IMG/VR virus record: IMGVR_UViG_3300035498_000732
Span: 1 to 64,000 of that record
Source: a virus
Lineage: Duplodnaviria > Caudoviricetes
Length of the DNA: 64,000 nucleotides
Strand: one strand, 5' to 3'
The position numbers and the translations under genes were made by a program. Position 1 is the first letter of the stretch; every line of letters begins with the position of its first letter. Below the pieces are notes generated by a model. It saw only the letters and a list, made by a program, of their open reading frames with translations. It was not told the origin of the DNA and made no database searches. Positions 1 to 59,255 of the stretch are shown in pieces.

Positions 1-300
1 GCTGTTCCCTACTCTACTCACTTCAGAGATTTCTCTCCTTATTTTACTCAGCAGTATGGTGCTGATTAGCTTTCGATAGCCGTCGATCAATCAAAAATTG
101 TAATTTTTGATTGAAGCTGATCTTACATTGTATCGGTACTTAGGATCTATCAATGATAGACTTTTATCTCACCATATACCATCCCAATACTTGTTTCTGA
201 CTTTCGTCTCCTTTCGGCAATTGGGCATTAGCAAGTTCCAGCAAATTTCGTACAGTAGTTTTAAGCTATGCATTGCTGCATAACCGGCCCTATTATGCTA
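1..300 (-). mobile_element. Group I intron (5' part; continues off window) in the RNAP beta' N gene
   Basis: ORF stops just after NRNPTLGYG. Exon-end GGCU can pair with GGCC (286-289), giving the U.G splice pair. P-like AAUUUGCUGGAA (~236-247) and Q-like AAUCAGCA (~60-67) are present. The region is non-coding and structured. Confidence 0.85.
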
Positions 301-1561
301 AGCCATATCCCAGCGTTGGATTGCGATTTATTAGAATTGGTAGTCCTCTGCCATCACATGAATTATCTATAATGGACTGGATAATTTCCTTTACTCTTGG
401 ATCTATAGAAATACTTGATTTATACCAGATATTATAAGCTTCATCAAATGAAACATTATAACTACGTCTAAGTATATTCACTATACGTTGCTCTAATACT
501 ATTACCAATTCATAATATGGAAGTATTACCTGGTCAATCTCAAGATTTGGATCTTGAATGATAACAGATCTGCCAGTAAAATTATATCTACCGGATACAA
601 GATTTCTAAAGATTCCTTTCTTACCCTCAAGAATGCTTACTACTTCATTATATAACTCCATATATTTCATCTGGAGTTTATAAAGATTCTGATTTTTCTG
701 TTCTTTATCACGATCGAATCTTGTTTTATTCTTATTAATAGAATGCACTATAGAATTCATCATATTATAAATTCCATTAGTACCTTCATATTGCATAGAC
801 TTTCCTGTGACTTGGAATGGTCTAAGATGAGTAGTATATACAGGAATAGAGTGAGTAAATACTTTATCTCTATCTTGTATTATCTGACTATAATACTCAT
901 ACTTAGATGGATTTCTTTTAGCATAGTATTCAAGGATTTCATCAAATCTATTAACAAAATCTATCATACCAATACCATAGAATGGTTCTCCTTTGGGACA
1001 TTCAGAGAGTTGAGTTACATGTCCATCTCTATCTTTCTCTCCCTGGACATTTAGAATATTATCTAATTTACTCTTTTTACCATATCCATTTCCAAATAGA
1101 AATTCTATCTGCATATATAAAATTGGATGAATAATCTGATGCTCATCAAGCACCAGCCAACCGAAATAACTAAAATCATCATCCATATATCTAACTCTAG
1201 TACCACACTTAGGACACATAATCCCATGATTGATTCTAGAATGTAGATAACCGCATTCACATTTATATCTATCTATGAATGGGTTTTGATCTCCCAAAGT
1301 CTGTCCAAACTTTGAAGAGAATATTCCATTAGGATCTTTAAGATCTTTCTTGATCCCCCTTGCCGCGGAACATATAAATCCTCTGCCCTCACGGATATCT
1401 TTCTCCATCTCTAAATCTAGATTGATCTTTTCCAATTGTGTAAAATACATATACATCGGATCATCCGGATATTGCATTGTATGCATAGGTTTATCAGATG
1501 GCGATGATATTCTTTGCATGAAATTAGAATAATCATTCATGTACTTTTCTGTAGTTGCCAT
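301..1561 (-). CDS. Multisubunit RNA polymerase beta' N-terminal subunit, exon 1 (probably non-virion RNAP)
   Basis: Zn-binding CECG..CPKCG, GKKGIFRNLVSGRYNFTGRSVI and LINRNPTL motifs. An early-type promoter lies upstream at ~2006-2016. Confidence 0.93.
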
Positions 1562-1617: not shown

Positions 1618-1950
1618 TTATGAATTAGGTAATGTGACAGAACCACATAATGGACAAATATAACTCAGTCTTGGGTTAATCACTATGAATTTGCCACATG
1701 AGCATCTAGAATAACTAGTTTTCAATTTGGATTTGTATTCAAAGCTAGTCATATAATCAACTAGAGCATCTATACTCTTATCCAATCCAATTAACTTTTG
1801 ATCCACAGTGAGATCTCCATAAATAGTATTGTAATATTTATCTCCTTTCGTTATTTTATCTACTGTAGTCTTTATAAATTCTGTATCTGTATCATCTACT
1901 TTCATTACTTTATCTACAATAGTTTTTACAAATTCTTCATTGGTGTTCAT
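1618..1950 (-). CDS. Hypothetical protein with C-terminal Zn ribbon
   Basis: CSCG...CPLCG; short internal repeat EFVKTIVDK/EFIKTTVDK; AAGGAG RBS. Confidence 0.7.
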   Translation of the reverse strand: MNTNEEFVKTIVDKVMKVDDTDTEFIKTTVDKITKGDKYYNTIYGDLTVDQKLIGLDKSIDALVDYMTSFEYKSKLKTSYSRCSCGKFIVINPRLSYICPLCGSVTLPNS

Positions 1951-2035
1951 TTATATAGTATTTCTCCTTTGCATAATTCATTTTAAAATATCTCCTTTCT
2001 AAGTATATAATATATGTCCATCTTGCAATTTGCTT

Positions 2036-2137
2036 AAAAAAGAAACAAACTCCCCCGCCCAACCACAGGCAGAGGAGTGAGCAATATGAACGCACAACAA
2101 CATGGGAGGTAAATGAATTCCCGCAACAAATCCATTT
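2036..2137 (-). ncRNA. Candidate late small RNA (hairpin, anti-SD segment, terminator)
   Basis: AACA-N6-TA promoter 2148-2137; 10-bp 5' hairpin; ACCUCCC; GC-rich terminator with U tract. Confidence 0.6.
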
Positions 2138-2164
2138 ACCATATTGTTATCTAATATTTAATTT

Positions 2165-3406
2165 CTAATCATCCATAGAGAATGCTTTCCATGGATCCAT
2201 TTCTACTGTATGTACTACAGAGTCATGAAATGCTTTCATAGAAATATTTTTTAAGGTAGAAGGAATTACATCAGTCATTACACCTACATTTCTCATATTA
2301 GGTCCAAGTCTATACCATATATTTCCAGCGCATTTAGAACAGAATCCACCTTTGCTCTTACACATAGAAGAAAATCTGAACTTCACATTCTTTCCAATGT
2401 ACTTATCCATATTTTGAGAGGTAAGTTCTACTAAACTAGATCCTATTATCATCCAAGAATACATCCAATCATCTACATTCTTTTCAGTAAGATGTACTAT
2501 TACATAATTCTTAGTATGGCAATCAGATCCTTCTGGCAATAACTTAAGATGCTGTGTCATTGAAAGGAATAGCTTCTCCCAATATCCACCCATAGATGTT
2601 TTCTTACCTCTAGAGTATGGGCCAGCAGATAATGAATTGGCAAACATGGAATATTCATCTGCAGATACTCCATCCATATAATTAGAGAATGCAATATTAT
2701 ATGTCTTCTGGGCATTAGGATCAGGATTCTTCATGGCACCCTTCATGATATACATATTCTTGAAGTTGTTATCAATAGATCCACCTGCACCTGAATTGAA
2801 TCCATCCATTCCAGGGTCATTTCCGATATAATCTGTAGCATACTTTAGAAGTTCATTCTCCATATCTTCTACTACTTTTACATCACCTGCATCTATAGCA
2901 GCTTTATTCTTCTTAATAAGCTCAGCCTTTTTCTTATCTACCTTATCTGTTAAGGTAAGCATTTCCTCAGACCAGCTACCTGATAATACAGTAACAAACT
3001 TCATAAACTCTTGAGTTTTTTCTAGAAAATCTTTAAGATCATCTATAGTAATTCTATCTTCCATAAGAGCATATGATAATTTCTTCTGTATCTTTCCATA
3101 AGCTTTTTTAGTAATGGGATAATTTATATATCCTGTTACATGTGATACATGGGGTTCAATAAAATACTTATTGAATATCCATAATCCAGCAGTAGTGGTA
3201 AATGTATTTTTATTTGGTTTTCCACCTACTACGAATTTTCCAGGAGGTATTTCTATTGTGTCATATTGATTACAAGCATTATTACCATCAAATTCACCAA
3301 ATAAATCTAGTACAAATGATTGGCATACACTCTCCTCAGTCATATTGAGAAGAGTATCTATTACCTCCTGGTTTCGTATAGGCTTAGACACTCTGGTTTT
3401 AGCCAT
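2165..3406 (-). CDS. RNA polymerase beta' C-terminal subunit (probably virion RNAP)
   Basis: Bridge-helix-like SRGKKTSMGGYWEK, SDCHT, RFSSMC..CSKCAG, trigger-loop-like LKNISMKAFHD. Lies under a late promoter with a structural gene. Confidence 0.9.
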   Translation of the reverse strand: MAKTRVSKPIRNQEVIDTLLNMTEESVCQSFVLDLFGEFDGNNACNQYDTIEIPPGKFVVGGKPNKNTFTTTAGLWIFNKYFIEPHVSHVTGYINYPITKKAYGKIQKKLSYALMEDRITIDDLKDFLEKTQEFMKFVTVLSGSWSEEMLTLTDKVDKKKAELIKKNKAAIDAGDVKVVEDMENELLKYATDYIGNDPGMDGFNSGAGGSIDNNFKNMYIMKGAMKNPDPNAQKTYNIAFSNYMDGVSADEYSMFANSLSAGPYSRGKKTSMGGYWEKLFLSMTQHLKLLPEGSDCHTKNYVIVHLTEKNVDDWMYSWMIIGSSLVELTSQNMDKYIGKNVKFRFSSMCKSKGGFCSKCAGNIWYRLGPNMRNVGVMTDVIPSTLKNISMKAFHDSVVHTVEMDPWKAFSMDD

Positions 3407-3420
3407 AGTTTCGCCTCTTT

Positions 3421-4257
3421 TTAATAATACGTCTGATATGTAATCTCAATGCCCTTGGTTAAGTCAATAAGAGATTCATTATTCATATTAAACTGTGTAA
3501 CAGGCAAGATGTCCTGATACCATACATATCCATCTGGATCAGTAACCTGCCATGCCTGACATAATGAGAACTGATTTACTAATGCTGTATTAATTCCTGT
3601 AGTGGCAATGAAGTAATCACGGCAATCATTCTTAGTAATAAGAAGTACTGTTTCTACATACAGTTCTGCCTCTGTTCTATTTGCTGAATTAAATACATTA
3701 GCATCAATAGAAGTACCATCAATATATTGAGCATACATCTGAGGATCTGTCTCTGGCTTCTTGAAATAGTATGCATAATAACTATTTCCTACAGTCTTTC
3801 TACCAAAGTATACTTCTCTCATAGATGGAGCTAAATCATTATCAATAGCTTGATATCTAAAAGGAATCATATTTGATGGCTGGATTCTTTTGGTATAATC
3901 TACATCATATACCTGAGACATTTCTACACCACATCCACCTGTGCCACAGCAGAATAAAGAAATCTTTTTCTTTGTATTCTGAGAAGTAATTTCTGCTGGT
4001 GTATCTAATTGCATATCACTATTATACGTAGGAAATGGAATGATATCATCAAGTCCCCACTGCATAGTAGCAGTCCACTGAGCACCAGAGATAAGGGTCT
4101 TATTATGCAACTCTTTAACTTCTCCAGTATCCAGATTCTTTACATAAATTCGTGTACCCTTAGGCCCACCAACAAATCTATCGGCGACACTATTAGTGAC
4201 ATTAACGCCATCTAATTTGATTCCACCTTTATCGAAGACTAGCTTCTTCTTAACCAT
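3421..4257 (-). CDS. Putative virion (tail/baseplate) structural protein
   Basis: Late promoter 4283-4294; beta-rich composition; next to baseplate gene. Confidence 0.55.
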   Translation of the reverse strand: MVKKKLVFDKGGIKLDGVNVTNSVADRFVGGPKGTRIYVKNLDTGEVKELHNKTLISGAQWTATMQWGLDDIIPFPTYNSDMQLDTPAEITSQNTKKKISLFCCGTGGCGVEMSQVYDVDYTKRIQPSNMIPFRYQAIDNDLAPSMREVYFGRKTVGNSYYAYYFKKPETDPQMYAQYIDGTSIDANVFNSANRTEAELYVETVLLITKNDCRDYFIATTGINTALVNQFSLCQAWQVTDPDGYVWYQDILPVTQFNMNNESLIDLTKGIEITYQTYY

Positions 4258-4303: not shown

Positions 4304-6832
4304 CTAAACATACCGTATTGATACATTCTCCTTATTTATTCCACCAGATTCAGAAGTATCATAAGTTGCTTTTACTTTAGAAGCAGTATCATAAAATCCT
4401 GTATAATCTGTCTTGTCATATACATATGCTAATTGATCTACCCTATCAGCAATATTACACTGATTTCTTGAAGATTTATTAACGTTCTTATTTATTACTT
4501 CTTTAGCAATACCATCATTACTTCTAAAATCATTATACCATCTGTAAGCTTTATACCAATGATCTTGTATAGATGGTTCTTCTGAGATAGTTATGTCATT
4601 TAATTGATTAGCAATTCTATCTTGATCTGGAAGAATCTGCTCTTTAGATTTAAAGAATATTCTAAATAGAGCATCATCTATAATAAGACAAGTATTGGTA
4701 AGCTTATCATCTGCTACATATACAGTATCTAAATCCAAGATACTTATCTTGAATGATTTAAAGAAGTTGATAATATCCATTACATATACTTTTACTGCTT
4801 CGATGGATACGGCAGGTAATCCAGCAAATAGATAAGGAACAATTCCCATATCTACATACTCTTCAATACAGCATGCTATATTATATACTTGAGTGGCAAT
4901 CTTCTCATTTCTAGACTCTTCACTTACATTGACTAATGCTAAATACTTCTCATAGAGATCACTTCTCTTATATTGAAGAAATTCTGCATAACTGGTGGCT
5001 ATTGTACCTTCATCATCTATAACAAAGTAATCAAGATTTATTCTAGTAAGCATAAGAGAATCATAGATCTTTTTATATAATCTATATATTCTAGCATTAT
5101 TAGCAGTCATCATTTCATGTACTACATGGTCATAGATATTCTTGTTATTTGTATAGACTTCCATAAGTTGAGTAAATGAGAAAATGCCATTAGACGGATC
5201 TTTCCATCCAGATATACCCATATCATCAAATGTCTTTACTCCAGTCTCCCAGAGATATGTAGCCAATTCAGATAAATCAGCTTCAAAATTAAATCCCAAT
5301 ATCTTAAGACTTTCATCTACATCTGTAATTATAACATCTTCTGTTCCATAATATACATGTGCTAAAGCATACATATATATGAATGCATCCATTATTGTAA
5401 CAGATGTATTCAATACTGGAACTTTAACAAGTAATAATGATTTATCGATATCATTATTCAGAAGCAAATTAATGAAGTATGTAATCTGGAATAGATATTC
5501 GGACATAGAGTATACAGATTTGATAGACATATATTTAGTCCTGAGCATATTGAAATTATACTCAAGAATATCCTGTCTAACTTCATCTTCTGTATGATCT
5601 CCAATCCAATATTGATCTGATCTAGTCACCTCTTCATAGTCCAATATGTTAGCTTCAGTTTTTATAGCATCATCAGGTAATTCACTAATTCCAACTCTAA
5701 GAAACTCCAATGAATATGATGAATCCACATCTTCTACTATATCTCCAGCATCATTCTCCATAGTGGCAAAGATATAATTACCATCTGCATCTTTCTTTCT
5801 ACTCTTTAAGAGATAGTATTTGAATATTTCTATATTATCAAAGCCAAATAGAGATACTATATCTATGATGCATCTATCTGTGGATTTATACTTGATTAAT
5901 TTATTGAGATTTCTCACGAGAGATATCTGATATCTTATTGGAATCTCTGGGAAAAATTTAACGCCAGAGGCTTCAAAGAGATATTGAATAGTTCTAATAT
6001 CGAATACATCCTTTCTAATGATATACTCTGGAATCTCGTTGATCATATCACACATAGTCTGAAGTATAATCATTACCATCATAAATTTCTCATAATAATC
6101 AGACTTATAATTGTATGCTTCATCATAATAAAATTTAAGATAAATAATTCGATTCACTTCCAATAGATCTTGGAATCTAGTTCTTAATTCTGTCTCATCA
6201 CATTCTCCCACATATAGTGGAGCGAATTTGCCAGCCTTTCTAGCATCATATATTCCTACTTTTCTTTTGCCAATGAATCTAAGATACTCTGCTTCTGGAT
6301 AGAGTTCTAATAGAGTATCTATTACTCCAGCATTCTCAAATGCTTTGATAATATCAGTATCATATCTATGGATATATGTACCATAATCTATATAATTCTT
6401 AAGACTATCTGGCACTATATCTTCTGGTAACAGAATACCGTCTTGACCCATTGGTGGAAGCCCATTTAATTTACGATAGTACTCATTCTCTTCCTCGTAG
6501 CTGTCAATATATGATTCCCTGATGCTACTAGTAAGCATATCTCTATACTCTTCTGGAATCAGATCATTATTAGCAGACCATTGATAGATCTCTTTGCTAG
6601 TAATACTTGGAATCTTAGATATTTCGTTCTCCCCGAATTTATACATAGCAAAAGTAGCGAATCCATCTACAGATGCAAGATAAAGATCAGATCTAACAAG
6701 AGATGCTTCTGTCTCTTGATTATCTGCTTCTACATCATCTTTTAGAACTACTCTATCTGCAATTATTTGCTTGCAATTATATATAATTTCATCAAGCATA
6801 GGGGTGTCTGTTAATACTTTTTCAATTTCCAT
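4304..6832 (-). CDS. Putative baseplate wedge protein
   Basis: Segment LIKYKSTDRCIIDIVSLFGF resembles P2 gpI-type KGT motif; late promoter 6858-6869. Confidence 0.6.
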   Translation of the reverse strand: MEIEKVLTDTPMLDEIIYNCKQIIADRVVLKDDVEADNQETEASLVRSDLYLASVDGFATFAMYKFGENEISKIPSITSKEIYQWSANNDLIPEEYRDMLTSSIRESYIDSYEEENEYYRKLNGLPPMGQDGILLPEDIVPDSLKNYIDYGTYIHRYDTDIIKAFENAGVIDTLLELYPEAEYLRFIGKRKVGIYDARKAGKFAPLYVGECDETELRTRFQDLLEVNRIIYLKFYYDEAYNYKSDYYEKFMMVMIILQTMCDMINEIPEYIIRKDVFDIRTIQYLFEASGVKFFPEIPIRYQISLVRNLNKLIKYKSTDRCIIDIVSLFGFDNIEIFKYYLLKSRKKDADGNYIFATMENDAGDIVEDVDSSYSLEFLRVGISELPDDAIKTEANILDYEEVTRSDQYWIGDHTEDEVRQDILEYNFNMLRTKYMSIKSVYSMSEYLFQITYFINLLLNNDIDKSLLLVKVPVLNTSVTIMDAFIYMYALAHVYYGTEDVIITDVDESLKILGFNFEADLSELATYLWETGVKTFDDMGISGWKDPSNGIFSFTQLMEVYTNNKNIYDHVVHEMMTANNARIYRLYKKIYDSLMLTRINLDYFVIDDEGTIATSYAEFLQYKRSDLYEKYLALVNVSEESRNEKIATQVYNIACCIEEYVDMGIVPYLFAGLPAVSIEAVKVYVMDIINFFKSFKISILDLDTVYVADDKLTNTCLIIDDALFRIFFKSKEQILPDQDRIANQLNDITISEEPSIQDHWYKAYRWYNDFRSNDGIAKEVINKNVNKSSRNQCNIADRVDQLAYVYDKTDYTGFYDTASKVKATYDTSESGGINKENVSIRYV

Positions 6833-9631: not shown

Positions 9632-9639
9632 ATATAAAT

Positions 9640-9670
9640 GGGGTGCTGAAATGCACCCCTCATTTATTTT
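9640..9670 (+). terminator. Intrinsic terminator
   Basis: GGGGTGC/GCACCCC stem plus T-rich tail. Confidence 0.7.
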
Positions 9671-9707
9671 GAAATATGGATTTTCCTCAATTACATATTA
9701 TATATTT

Positions 9708-9805
9708 GAATAATGCAATAAGCATTTGGCGGATTCGCCGCCAATCATCTCTTTCACCTTATAAAGGGAAGTCTGTCTGTAATGGGCAGACTTCTTTTTT
9801 TTTTT
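9708..9805 (+). ncRNA. Candidate early small RNA
   Basis: Early promoter ~9688-9704, hairpin 9726-9744, CU-rich linker, terminator 9768-9805; no ORF. Confidence 0.6.
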
Positions 9806-9875
9806 GTAATTAAATGATTGATCGATAATATATTATACCTGTAGAGAGATGATACAATCAAAGGAGGAACAAGAA

Positions 9876-26265: not shown

Positions 26266-27207
26266 GTGGAAGAGATATTTGAAAAGTATAAAGTTTTAAA
26301 AGATGACTATTTAGTTCTTAAAGATGGTAGACAGGTCTTTAGAATTAAAGCATTACGAGACATTCATAATCATGAGATTGATGTTAAAGCAGGAGATCTT
26401 GGTGGTTATGTAGCATCTGAGGGTAATCTTTCCCAAATGGGAAATTCATGGATTGGGCCTGGTTCTATAGTATGCGGTAGAGCATTTGTGAGTTCCGAAG
26501 ATGTTGCTGTATTAGGGAATTCATATGTATACGATTCTTATAAGCATACATGCAGTTCAATTGGCGGCAAAACAGTATCTATTATAGATTCATATATAAA
26601 GGACTGTGAATTTGATATTATTACAGAAGATGAGATATTAATTCATAATAGTAAGCTTACCAGATGTACATTTGAGCATTCCGCATTAGCAAAGATCGAT
26701 TGCAGTGTATTGACAGACTGCAAAATGTCTTATGCAACTATATTTGATTCAAATATAGAGAATGCTGTAATTCCGTATGGGGCTGATATTAATCATGATG
26801 ATTATGTATTGGTAGACTCGGTTCCAGAATCTCTGATAGTTAAATTTATAAGTGGAAAGCCAACACCTCTACCAACCAGAGATAAAATATTTTTATGCAT
26901 GGGATCTTTAGATCATCAATTTGTGATGACATCGCAAGTATATAAACATGATGGATCTGTAGATGATCTGATTTTCAAGATTCAGAATGGGACTAGTGTG
27001 GAATGCACTAAGCAAGAACAGAAAAGACGTTGTATCAAAGCTAATATTTATAGTGGCATGATTAATTCATTGTCTAATATGATCCTTCTCAATACATCTG
27101 ATATCGAATCTCCTGTAAATACCAAAAAGTTCCCATTATATGAATACACATCTATCATAAATATTCCATTATGTGAATATCAATCTACAAATAAAGAAAT
27201 GGAGTGA
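26266..27207 (+). CDS. YdcK-like beta-helix repeat protein
   Basis: FRIKALRD..VKAGDLGGYVASEGNLSQ.GNSWI N-terminus followed by short beta repeats. Confidence 0.75.
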   Translation: MEEIFEKYKVLKDDYLVLKDGRQVFRIKALRDIHNHEIDVKAGDLGGYVASEGNLSQMGNSWIGPGSIVCGRAFVSSEDVAVLGNSYVYDSYKHTCSSIGGKTVSIIDSYIKDCEFDIITEDEILIHNSKLTRCTFEHSALAKIDCSVLTDCKMSYATIFDSNIENAVIPYGADINHDDYVLVDSVPESLIVKFISGKPTPLPTRDKIFLCMGSLDHQFVMTSQVYKHDGSVDDLIFKIQNGTSVECTKQEQKRRCIKANIYSGMINSLSNMILLNTSDIESPVNTKKFPLYEYTSIINIPLCEYQSTNKEME

Positions 27208-56911: not shown

Positions 56912-56932
56912 ATAGGAGGTAAATGATCGAAA

Positions 56933-58009
56933 ATGAGTAGTTTATTATATGAACATGGAAAACGATTGGATAACTCCGTATTTGCAGATACAATTATCAA
57001 TAAGAAAGATTATGAAAGCATCATCTCTGAGAATATGGATCTCACAGATATGCAGACATTAGCTACTGTAAATGCTATTAATGAAGCAGATAGAGCAGCC
57101 GTACTTACTTCTCTTACATCTAGACTCTATGATAATATTGTAGATAAAGTAGATGATATTGATTTTGGTACTATTGCTACTTCTAAGGGTGATATTACTA
57201 AAATTGAGAATTATGAGAGATTATTGGATTGTATCGAGGTATTGAGATCAATTGTTAAGGAATATCATCAGTCTACTGAACCTATTGATGTAGTATCTGA
57301 TGCTATTACTAATATTAGAAATCGTACTAAGCTATGGACTAAGTGTTATGCTATGAATTTGGAGTTACCTATAATCTTATATCAAACAATGACTATGGCT
57401 TGTGTATCTTCAATTTCATTATTGATTGCTACTAGTATTGAATTTATTAAAAATTCAGAAGATGGCACATATACAGCTGCCTTAGATAAAGTGGCTTATA
57501 ATAAAACAAGTGTTAATCTTCTCTATAGTAATCTTAAGAAGTTTAATAATGCTTGTAAGTCTGGAGAGATTGATGAAGTTGTTAATCATATCATCTCTAC
57601 AAATTCTAAGCAATTTGTTGGTGCTGTATGTAATATTCTGGTATCTGGTGCTGCAGTGGTAGCAATTATTAAATTCATTGTACCTATGCTGAGAGAATTG
57701 GTATACTTCTTCTATTCTGCTAAACAGTCTGTATCTGACTATTTTGCTATTCAGGCAGATTTATTAGAGGTAAATGCTAATAACGTTCAGTATAAGTCCG
57801 ATATTCCAGATGAGAAACGTACTATCATCTATAATAGACAGAAAGGCATTGCTGATAAATTTAGGAATATTAGTAATACTTTTGCTATTAAGATGAATAA
57901 AGCACAACATGATGCTGATAAGAGTATCACTAGTGAGAAAAAGAAATATAAGATTTCTGATATTACCTATGAGAAGCTTGATTCAGACGATTCATATGGC
58001 TTATTTTAG
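56933..58009 (+). CDS. Virion head-associated structural protein
   Basis: Co-transcribed with 55283; ISE/INE sites; hydrophobic helices. Confidence 0.6.
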   Translation: MSSLLYEHGKRLDNSVFADTIINKKDYESIISENMDLTDMQTLATVNAINEADRAAVLTSLTSRLYDNIVDKVDDIDFGTIATSKGDITKIENYERLLDCIEVLRSIVKEYHQSTEPIDVVSDAITNIRNRTKLWTKCYAMNLELPIILYQTMTMACVSSISLLIATSIEFIKNSEDGTYTAALDKVAYNKTSVNLLYSNLKKFNNACKSGEIDEVVNHIISTNSKQFVGAVCNILVSGAAVVAIIKFIVPMLRELVYFFYSAKQSVSDYFAIQADLLEVNANNVQYKSDIPDEKRTIIYNRQKGIADKFRNISNTFAIKMNKAQHDADKSITSEKKKYKISDITYEKLDSDDSYGLF

Positions 58010-58127
58010 CTATCATGTATTCTTTTAAAAATAAACATAATAATAATTGGCAGCCTAGCATGGTTATAAGCCATGCTTGGCTACTAAATCCTAAAGTAAA
58101 ATATATTTTATAAGGAGGATATACATA

Positions 58128-59255
58128 ATGGTATATGGAAGTATTTATGGTGCTTCTAGATATGGCGTAAGTGAGGCTCAGTTCAATCCTGACTATGCTA
58201 TGCCTGATGGACCATCATTGGTGGTCGAAGAGTCTATTAAATTCGACCAGAATATGTTTGATGTTATTATTGAACGTGATTTTGTAGAGTGTGCTGCTAT
58301 GCAGGGCGCTATTAGCGAATCCACTCTTTATGCTATTGATGAAAGCTTTGTTTCTGACGTTTGGGGAAGAGTTAAAGAGTTTATTGCTAAGGTAAAAGAA
58401 AAGATCGTATCTATTGCTAAGGCTGCTGCATTGAGAGTAAATGCATTCTTTACAAAAGATGGATCTGCTCTTGTTGAGAAGTATGGCCGTCAGTTTGATG
58501 CTGCTGATGTATCTAAGCTTGAAATCAAGGGATGGAGAGAGAAGAAAGAAAGCGGAAGTGGCATTCTTGCTTCATTAGGAAATACAAGTGAACTTTCTGT
58601 AGTTAAATCATATGAAGGTGCTATTACTGTCAGCACACAGAAGGAAAAAGATAAATTTGAAAAGGAGCATGGTGTAGATAAGGTATTATCTACATATCTT
58701 GGTGGCAAGAAGACTACGTATGCTACATTCACAAAAGATGCAGAGTCTAAAGTATTTAAGGATCCAGCTACTGTAAAAGCAAGCAAGATTAGAAATACAA
58801 TCAAAGATATCGTTTCTGGTAATGGAAAGAGCATTAATGAAATTACTGAAATCAAAGATACAACTGAAAAAGCATATTCCACAGCAGAAGAAGATGCTCA
58901 GAAACAGATAGATAAAGCTAGAAGTGATACATATGAAGATGATGCAGATGCTGGCAATGGCGGCAAAGGCAAGACATCTCAGGAAAAACATGATGCAGCT
59001 GTATTCCAGGCAGAGTGTGCTAAGTTTGTCATTAGTGAAAACTCGAAGGCTGTTAGTAAAGTATTTTCCACATATCTTGATATCTTAAAACTTGATCTGA
59101 AGCAAGCAAGGAAGGCATTTATTACTATTGCTTCTAAGGGAGCAGGCAAGGTTACCGAGTCTACATTGCTTGAGGCTGTACTTGATGCTGATGAGTATGA
59201 AGTAGATTCATTCTTTGATCAGTACAGCTATGACTTTGAAGAACTTATTTCATAA
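58128..59255 (+). CDS. Head-internal protein, paralog of 59279
   Basis: MVYGS(I/V)Y start; acidic propeptide then ES..W.RVKEFI.K; late promoter 58034-58045. Confidence 0.65.
   Translation: MVYGSIYGASRYGVSEAQFNPDYAMPDGPSLVVEESIKFDQNMFDVIIERDFVECAAMQGAISESTLYAIDESFVSDVWGRVKEFIAKVKEKIVSIAKAAALRVNAFFTKDGSALVEKYGRQFDAADVSKLEIKGWREKKESGSGILASLGNTSELSVVKSYEGAITVSTQKEKDKFEKEHGVDKVLSTYLGGKKTTYATFTKDAESKVFKDPATVKASKIRNTIKDIVSGNGKSINEITEIKDTTEKAYSTAEEDAQKQIDKARSDTYEDDADAGNGGKGKTSQEKHDAAVFQAECAKFVISENSKAVSKVFSTYLDILKLDLKQARKAFITIASKGAGKVTESTLLEAVLDADEYEVDSFFDQYSYDFEELIS

Follow-up and report, generated by a model that had tools for sequence, protein, structure and literature searches.

A candidate late small RNA gene between two RNA polymerase genes of an uncultivated AR9-like jumbo phage

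In an uncultivated jumbo phage, the intergenic region downstream of the gene for a C-terminal piece of the RNA polymerase (RNAP) beta subunit (beta-C) probably contains, judging from its sequence, a small regulatory RNA gene that is late, lineage-restricted and a new sequence family of a known kind. We consider it a credible candidate. In the reading that we favor, to which we assign a probability of roughly 0.45, the product is a late, terminator-ended sRNA of ~100-120 nt whose ACCUCCC and GUUCAUAU motifs pair with translation-initiation regions. We rate it as more probable than this joint reading that the unit is a discrete functional RNA element, and as less probable that it is a translational repressor. 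The conserved blocks, the fixed AACA and TA, the hairpins, the accessibility of the exposed motifs and the rarity of such units together speak for a functional RNA element that has a promoter of its own, and against a chance assembly of motifs.

Genomic context

The stretch of DNA that was analyzed (64 kb, called the window below) is the start of a 126,688-bp virus contig with a G+C content of 33.7%. Its source is an uncultivated AR9/PBS1-like jumbo phage, seen in metagenomes alone. Because a 48-kb relative was rated 20% complete, we take the contig to be probably about half of a genome of ~240 kb.

The genes that flank the RNA unit are all encoded on the minus strand (Table 1). The product of the upstream gene is 33% identical to its AR9/PBS1 counterparts and is a homologue of AR9 g264, a virion RNAP (vRNAP) subunit by annotation. 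A preliminary description of this DNA had placed the unit between two RNAP genes. This is borne out, with beta-C upstream and an N-terminal piece of beta' downstream, beyond a gene for 110 amino acids.

IMG/VR contains three contigs (L001-L003) with a beta-C protein that is 89-91% identical to the one in the window. In all three, the unit is found at the same place, directly after the beta-C stop codon. As L002 and L003 agree in this region, there are three distinct unit sequences (window, L001, and L002 = L003).

The start of the downstream gene deserves a separate comment. At 1937-1996 (minus strand), a strong Shine-Dalgarno (SD) sequence, AGAAAGGAGAU, is followed by an AUG at 1981. This stretch is near-identical to the region where the downstream gene starts in L002/L003, but in the window the AUG opens an ORF of 14 codons only, and the 110-aa ORF starts at 1950 in a different frame, with an SD 14 nt away. 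The arrangement could be due to a frameshift or an assembly error, or it could represent an upstream leader ORF.

Table 1. Features of the RNA unit and its surroundings (coordinates refer to the window)
Feature	Coordinates	Strand	Basis or remark
Virion structural protein	4304-6832	-	
DUF7208 protein	3421-4257	-	
RNAP beta C-terminal piece (upstream gene)	2165-3406	-	phrog_2962, E = 2.7e-63
Intergenic region containing the RNA unit	1951-2164	-	
AR9-type late (non-virion RNAP) promoter, AACA ATATGG TA	2137-2148	-	matches AR9 consensus
5' stem-loop SL1, 10 bp, 7-nt loop	2111-2137	-	MFE and centroid folds
Unpaired ACCUCCC within invariant block TACCTCCC (2104-2111)	2104-2110	-	anti-Shine-Dalgarno-like candidate seed
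Invariant block UGUUGUUG in variable middle region	2095-2102	-	three-way alignment
Invariant GUUCAUAU, complement of AUAUGAAC (start codon and flanks)	2084-2091	-	alignment
Intrinsic terminator, stem-loop 2078-2049 and U-run 2048-2036	2036-2078	-	terminator scan
AR9-type early-promoter motif ATATATTATA (2015-2006)	2003-2015	-	20 nt beyond the U-run; bounds the RNA, not part of it
110-aa ORF	1618-1950	-	between RNA unit and beta' piece
RNAP beta' N-terminal piece	293-1561	-	

Architecture and predicted folding

Read along the minus strand, the region consists of the RNAP stop codon (2167-2165), a 16-nt spacer, the late-promoter motif AACA-ATATGG-TA, a hairpin, ACCUCCC, AUGUUGUUGUGC, GUUCAUAUU (2091-2083), GCUC and the terminator. 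Two parts of the preliminary description, a hairpin at the 5' end and a terminator at the other, were confirmed. The hairpin consists of 10 bp and begins at the predicted +1. The terminator stem has 13 pairs (7 of them G-C), its 5' arm, ACUCCUCUGCC, contains CUCCUC, and it is followed by the U-run UUUGUUUCUUUUUU; it is the strongest terminator match within the first 8 kb. Since the terminator only starts 87 nt past the RNAP stop codon, the element is more than a terminator.

Folding was more stable than that of shuffled sequences, both with flanks (z = -4.35) and for the 104-nt RNA by itself (z = -2.1). ACCUCCC had unpaired probabilities of 0.86, 0.75 and 0.77 in the three homologous RNAs, and GUUCAUAU, for which weak pairing to the 5' AUGGAU is an alternative, had values of 0.55-0.74. 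The corresponding range for CUCCUC was 0-0.17 (0.00 for ACUCCUC of the window).

The earlier account had emphasized two segments complementary to ribosome-binding sites. Both are present (UCAUUUACCUCCC at 2116-2104 and GUUCAUAUUGCUCACUCCUC at 2091-2072), but each lies partly inside a stem. In the first segment, UCAUUU (2116-2111) makes up the 3' arm of the hairpin at the 5' end; the ACC that follows it would join the pairing only in a transcript that began a few bases further upstream. In the second, the 7 bases ACUCCUC belong to the 5' arm of the terminator, so that the anti-SD half is locked in a stem. Only the stretch from ACCUCCC to GUUCAUAUUGCUC (2110-2079) is predicted to be free.

Units of this type are rare in the genome. 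A systematic scan for late-promoter-to-terminator units with less than 25% coding sequence returned 3 in 126.7 kb, including the one at 2148-2036. We also noted G000:C1 76656-76721 (plus strand), on the same contig but outside the window, where a late promoter is followed by a terminator after ~54 nt, directly upstream of the SD of gene 76742; this unit resembles the sRNAs that arise by premature termination in 5'-UTRs of 201phi2-1. A further intergenic unit, at 9632-9848 (plus strand), begins with a hairpin of G and C, continues with the pyrimidine-rich AAUCAUCUCUUUCACCUUAU and ends in a strong terminator whose U-run is 11 long; an early-promoter motif follows directly.

Conservation in relatives

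The flanking genes share 77-85% DNA identity with their counterparts in the relatives. At third codon positions, identity is 55-69% in pairwise comparisons and 41-53% in the three-way comparison. Using the latter rate (0.41-0.53) in a Bernoulli model, we found six invariant runs of at least 8 nt (TAAATGGAT, TACCTCCC, TGTTGTTG, GTTCATAT, CTGTGGTTGG and the early promoter) with P at most 1e-4. In the same alignment, two spacers look near-neutral: the 16 nt that follow the stop codon, with 44% identity, and the stretch from the terminator to the early promoter, with 52%.

Structural parts are retained despite sequence change. The 5' hairpins of L001 and L002 have the same invariant 5' arm, combined with other 3' arms and loops, and pairing is held by one-sided changes (G-U to G-C, U-A to U-G). 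Among the three distinct sequences, covariation in this hairpin is limited to such one-sided changes. The terminator stem of the relatives has one compensatory double change (C-G to G-C) and an inserted pair, and its loop, UGUGGUUG, is invariant; the U-tract of L002 is weak. The relatives carry an insertion of 20-25 nt in the middle of the RNA, which folds as an extra hairpin and brings the RNA to ~120 nt, compared with ~100 nt in the window. The relatives retain the RNA unit, while the 110-aa gene that follows it has been replaced or has diverged.

The proposal of a separate gene for a non-coding RNA, transcribed from a late promoter, thus has comparative support, from three relatives and from a block pattern that fits the parts of the unit, although the mechanism and target proposed with it do not.

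The conserved blocks could also be read in terms of protein binding. If the GU-rich blocks (UGUUGUUG and the loop UGUGGUUG) and ACCUCCC bound a phage or host protein, the RNA might serve as a decoy, for example by mimicking the 3'-UUGU-5' promoter core in the template strand. UUGU is the promoter core read by the AR9 non-virion RNAP. According to studies of the AR9 polymerase (PMC5449584, PMC9209446), this enzyme recognizes its promoter in the template strand of uracil-containing DNA. This reading is favored by four copies of UGUU in every homologue (counted by eye) and by the place of the unit between RNAP genes. However, the full mirror of the promoter (YA-N6-UGUU) is absent from the RNA on visual inspection, and the enrichment of UGUU is marginal given the U/G-rich composition (p about 0.08 by estimate). 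We regard a protein-binding or decoy function as very improbable.

No paralogues were found in the 126.7-kb genome (blastn-short), pattern scans of IMG/VR for more homologues returned the same three contigs or chance matches only, and no homologues turned up when 185,579 genomes of bacteria and archaea were scanned. A protein search yielded 18 beta-C relatives with 61-89% identity. In a metagenome scan and a profile-based IMG/VR RNAP scan, the only relatives beyond L001-L003 were at most 56% identical, and synteny was lost.

At ~45 further jumbo-phage loci (beta-C 41-56% identical), the region downstream of beta-C is highly variable: some loci have a plain terminator there, others apparent tRNA genes, and others genes that are preceded by a separate late promoter. 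Two distant lineages have a non-homologous unit of the same plan, with AACA-N6-TA at the stop codon of vRNAP beta-C. In L004:5225-5325 (plus strand; = L009, L143), an AACA-N6-TA that overlaps the stop codon is followed by two small hairpins, AUUCCUCCG and a strong terminator, ~85 nt in total. L027:1443-1555 (plus strand) contains a non-homologous unit of the same plan, ~105 nt long, with UCUACCCCU. The two regions fold with z = -6.5 and -7.8, respectively, and have a CCUCC or CCCC motif. They are suggestive of a recurrent arrangement, but could be a coincidence. As a separate observation, the distant relatives L010, L012 and L025 appear by eye to have tRNA-like genes after vRNAP beta-C, with early-type promoter motifs before them.

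Promoters

The AR9 transcription study (PMC5312081) gives AACA-(6N)-T[A/G] as the late consensus, in which transcription starts at the last base, and AAATATATATTAT-(6N)-G as the early one. In the window, the late motif is laid out as AACA at 2148-2145, a 6-nt spacer, T at 2138 and a predicted +1 A at 2137. Throughout the 126.7 kb, AACA-N6-T[AG] has 20 matches in 9.6 kb of intergenic sequence versus 77 in 117 kb of coding sequence, a roughly 3-fold intergenic enrichment, and the majority of the intergenic copies are found 25-83 nt upstream of a start codon.

For a quantitative comparison, a weight matrix was derived from 16 intergenic candidates of the same genome (leave-one-out range 3.2-17.3 bits). 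The promoter at 2148-2137 scored 7.3 bits, rank 66 among 253,326 positions. This is in the lower-middle part of the leave-one-out range, i.e., mid to low for this phage, and sites that score at least as well are expected in ~5% of 200-nt stretches. The promoter had been called perfect; it matches the minimal AR9 motif exactly, but not the preferences of the genome to the same degree. In L001-L003, AACA and TAAATGGAT are invariant, and the spacer varies (ATATGG, TGTAGA, TGATTT). A bona fide late promoter at this locus, the one that precedes 3421-4257, shows a similar combination of fixed core and variable spacer in the relatives.

A cis-acting function has to be weighed against these data. The unit could be a 3'-UTR and terminator module of the late operon for virion proteins and vRNAP beta-C, with hairpins and blocks that protect the 3' end of the mRNA or guide its processing and that shield the early operon downstream; AACA-N6-TA would then be incidental, or conserved through pairing with a downstream UGUUG. 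The position of the unit, directly after the late operon and before the early promoter, is compatible with this explanation, and so are the mid to low promoter score and the plain terminators that other relatives have at the same place. In read-through transcripts of all three versions, UGUUGU or CAU segments are possible pairing partners of the promoter region, but the helix between promoter region and RNA body is not significant compared with shuffles (p = 0.09, 0.17, 0.26). Conservation starts exactly at AACA, past a neutral 16-nt spacer, and affects AACA and TA but not N6, and the unpaired ACCUCCC and GUUCAUAU are conserved even though a stabilizer hairpin would not need them. On balance, we take a cis-acting module to be a serious possibility, albeit an unlikely one.

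The early-promoter motif ATATATTATA occurs in 8 copies in the window, versus 3.3 expected by chance, and at least 6 of the 8 are intergenic and upstream of a co-oriented gene. The copy at 2003-2015, which serves the 110-aa gene and the beta' gene, is part of a 14-nt run that is invariant in the relatives. The AR9-type promoter grammar (early ATATATTAT, late AACA-N6-TA) thus reaches distant uncultivated relatives and can be used for their annotation. When start regions of the whole contig were compared by eye, genes with the early motif ATATATTATA mostly had SDs of the GAAAGGAGA type, and genes with AACA-N6-TA mostly had AAGGAGGA/U-type SDs. It is possible that the flavor of the ribosome-binding site is specific to the promoter class.

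In another reading, the late promoter serves the 110-aa gene and the beta' piece, with a regulated or leaky terminator and the short RNA as a by-product of a leader or attenuator. The downstream genes would then be continuously expressed from an early and a late promoter; in AR9, continuously expressed genes have both promoter types upstream (PMC5312081). Premature termination in 5'-UTRs is also common in 201phi2-1 (PMC11512511), a second late promoter-terminator-gene unit exists at G000 76667-76721, and the U-tract of L002 is weak. Yet there is no evident alternative antiterminator structure, the terminator of the window is strong, and the unit is kept where the downstream gene is replaced or diverged. 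ACCUCCC has no consistent pairing with the downstream SD in read-through folds, and cis sequestration of that SD by ACCUCCC was rejected as it was not seen in these folds. In our judgment, a leader function is quite unlikely.

Known RNA families and coding potential

Rfam 15 contains no family that matches the unit region, the whole window or the L002 homologue at the gathering threshold, and only sub-threshold chance matches were obtained around the unit and its L002 homologue. A tRNA scan found nothing at the RNA unit. Elsewhere in the window, ARAGORN reported a 91-nt tRNA-Ile (anticodon tat) at 58114-58204 (plus strand), which overlaps the start of ORF 58128 and is probably spurious.

On the minus strand, ORFs of 33 aa (from an AUG near the 5' end) and 47 aa were rejected as genes, as they are not conserved. 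In L001 and L002 they are stopped after 1-12 codons or frame-shifted, and they have no SD. By eye, no ORF on either strand of the unit is conserved in frame or length between the window and L001-L003.

The plus strand also has to be considered, since tiny ORFs for MNAQQHGR (from 2087) and MNSRNKSIYHIVI (from 2112) might be located behind real ribosome-binding sites. The first has a GAGGAG 8 nt from ATGAAC, a canonical SD spacing with counterparts of 8 nt in L001 and 11 nt in L002, and a sigma-70-like -35/-10 pair is found upstream. However, the peptides have 8, 5 and 10 aa, and a shared Met-Asn alone is common. The first SD is buried in a strong hairpin, and the second ORF, with an SD spacing of 3-4 nt, is absent from L002. 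Promoter, hairpin and U-run all point in the minus direction, without any plus-oriented terminator or phage promoter. We therefore give hardly any credence to a functional plus strand.

Search for targets

The tests for phage targets covered the 126.7-kb contig, probably about half of the phage genome. The unit had been proposed to encode a trans-acting repressor of translation, and a 12 of 12 match to the ribosome-binding region of the structural gene at 56933 had been noted. The match exists, at 56915-56926, and it does lie on the SD, but its BLAST E-value in the 126.7-kb genome is 0.86, which is chance level. It covers the SD of the gene and an out-of-frame AUG at 56923, not the start codon at 56933. 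The non-SD half of the 12 nt sits in a hairpin arm, where UCAUUU is changed to CCAUGG or CCGUUU in the relatives. Neither the available fragments of the relatives nor close IMG/VR contigs yielded a homologue of gene 56933. We rejected 56915 as a target on the grounds of the chance-level match and of the lack of a homologue in these fragments.

A 16 of 17 match at 27201, in the start region of gene 27213, was also rejected, because it is lost in G001: the homologue there, the only one among the relatives, differs in its start region.

Global pairing did not single out phage targets either. When the 42 exposed nt were compared with 129 phage start regions, duplex energies were not better than those of dinucleotide shuffles (p values: mean, 0.12; minimum, 0.17), and the expectation that the RNA would pair with phage start regions better than shuffled RNAs was not upheld. 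None of the gene starts of the 126.7-kb contig carries AUAUGAAC. When genomes of bacteria and archaea (596 Gb) were scanned for the mirror of the second segment, there were 22 matches, scattered over unrelated taxa and genes. A rough chance estimate is ~35, so that the observed number is not above expectation.

With a match at chance level, a variable half in the hairpin arm and pairing that does not beat shuffles, trans-acting translational repression as originally proposed is not supported. Several phage genes have GGAGGUA-type SDs that can pair with ACCUCC, and a multi-target role is therefore possible.

Proposed mode of action

From the observed sequence features, the conservation pattern and the predicted accessibility, we infer an active promoter, the accumulation of a discrete RNA, and an effect of this RNA in trans on the initiation of translation. 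The non-virion RNAP of the phage would start at the late promoter, 16 nt past the vRNAP beta-C stop codon, with 2137 as +1, and transcription would end at the intrinsic terminator at ~2036-2040, giving an RNA of ~100 nt. This RNA would consist of the 5' hairpin, an exposed stretch of ~30 nt (with ACCUCCC, UGUUGUUG and GUUCAUAU) and the terminator hairpin. Its exposed C-rich and anti-AUG motifs may pair with the SD and start region of at least one mRNA, and the most likely action of such pairing would be a block of translation during the late phase of infection. A host mRNA is one possible target; another is a gene in the missing half of the phage genome.

A more ambitious version, in which an AR9-like lineage uses its own non-canonical late RNAP to make a riboregulator that mirrors an initiation region almost completely (GUUCAUAU, ACCUCCC and CUCCUC) and, late in infection, silences one particular mRNA of the host or of the early phage genes, appears unlikely to us. 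If true, this RNA would do what T4 RegA and other translational repressors do as proteins, and the non-homologous analogues at the same position in L004 and L027 would point to a recurrent strategy. To our knowledge, the cataloguing of regulatory RNAs in giant phages with their own multisubunit RNAPs has just begun, and none of these RNAs has a known function. A conserved, clean-edged candidate with a late promoter and an exposed anti-SD motif would offer a good entry point to the question whether RNA contributes to the timing of translation in giant phages.

Comparison with known systems

The closest parallels in giant phages come from the phiKZ-like Pseudomonas phages 201phi2-1 and phiKZ, where intergenic and 5'-UTR-derived sRNAs were detected by ONT-cappable-seq (PMC11512511). 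In 201phi2-1, start sites closely followed by a terminator, with no coding sequence in between, were experimentally identified as sRNAs, one of them conserved across genera, and some of the sRNAs of the two phages are conserved by position among related phages (PMC11512511). The present unit is similar in that it is shorter than 250 nt, has a phage promoter followed by a terminator, and belongs to a giant phage with its own multisubunit RNAPs. It differs in that it was predicted from sequence, whereas the Pseudomonas phage RNAs were seen as transcripts. The promoter motifs also differ, and no sequence similarity with the unit was detected (no Rfam match).

AR9 itself has the same late motif, AACA-(6N)-T[A/G] (PMC5312081), and the same order of a virion-RNAP beta-C gene (g264) and an early promoter. 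In AR9, however, the early promoter follows the stop codon of g264 after only ~50 nt, too short a distance for an RNA of this kind, and none was noted in the passages of the transcription study that were consulted (PMC5312081).

Small RNAs of phages and prophages that block ribosome-binding sites are exemplified by the c4 RNA of P1/P7, which acts on ant mRNA, and by DicF of prophage Qin, which acts on ftsZ (PMC12197685). Both are small, terminator-ended RNAs with exposed segments that pair around the ribosome-binding site of the target and stop its translation (PMC12197685). The 2148-2036 unit is likewise predicted to give a small terminator-ended RNA with exposed segments. The targets of c4 and DicF are known and the pairing was tested, whereas no target of the present unit beats chance; host group and polymerase are also different. 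DicF arises by termination as well as by processing of a longer transcript (PMC12197685), and by analogy, the 2148-2036 RNA might possibly originate by processing, too.

The exposed C-rich motif finds a parallel outside phages, and the differences may be stated first: the present unit is phage-borne, and it has no sequence homology to the RNAs in question. RsaE/RoxS of Firmicutes are chromosomal, host-regulated RNAs with several C-rich repeats, in which an unpaired C-rich seed (UCCC/CCCC) between hairpins pairs with G-rich Shine-Dalgarno sites. The ACCUCCC of the phage unit is similarly unpaired by prediction, and it is invariant among the relatives.
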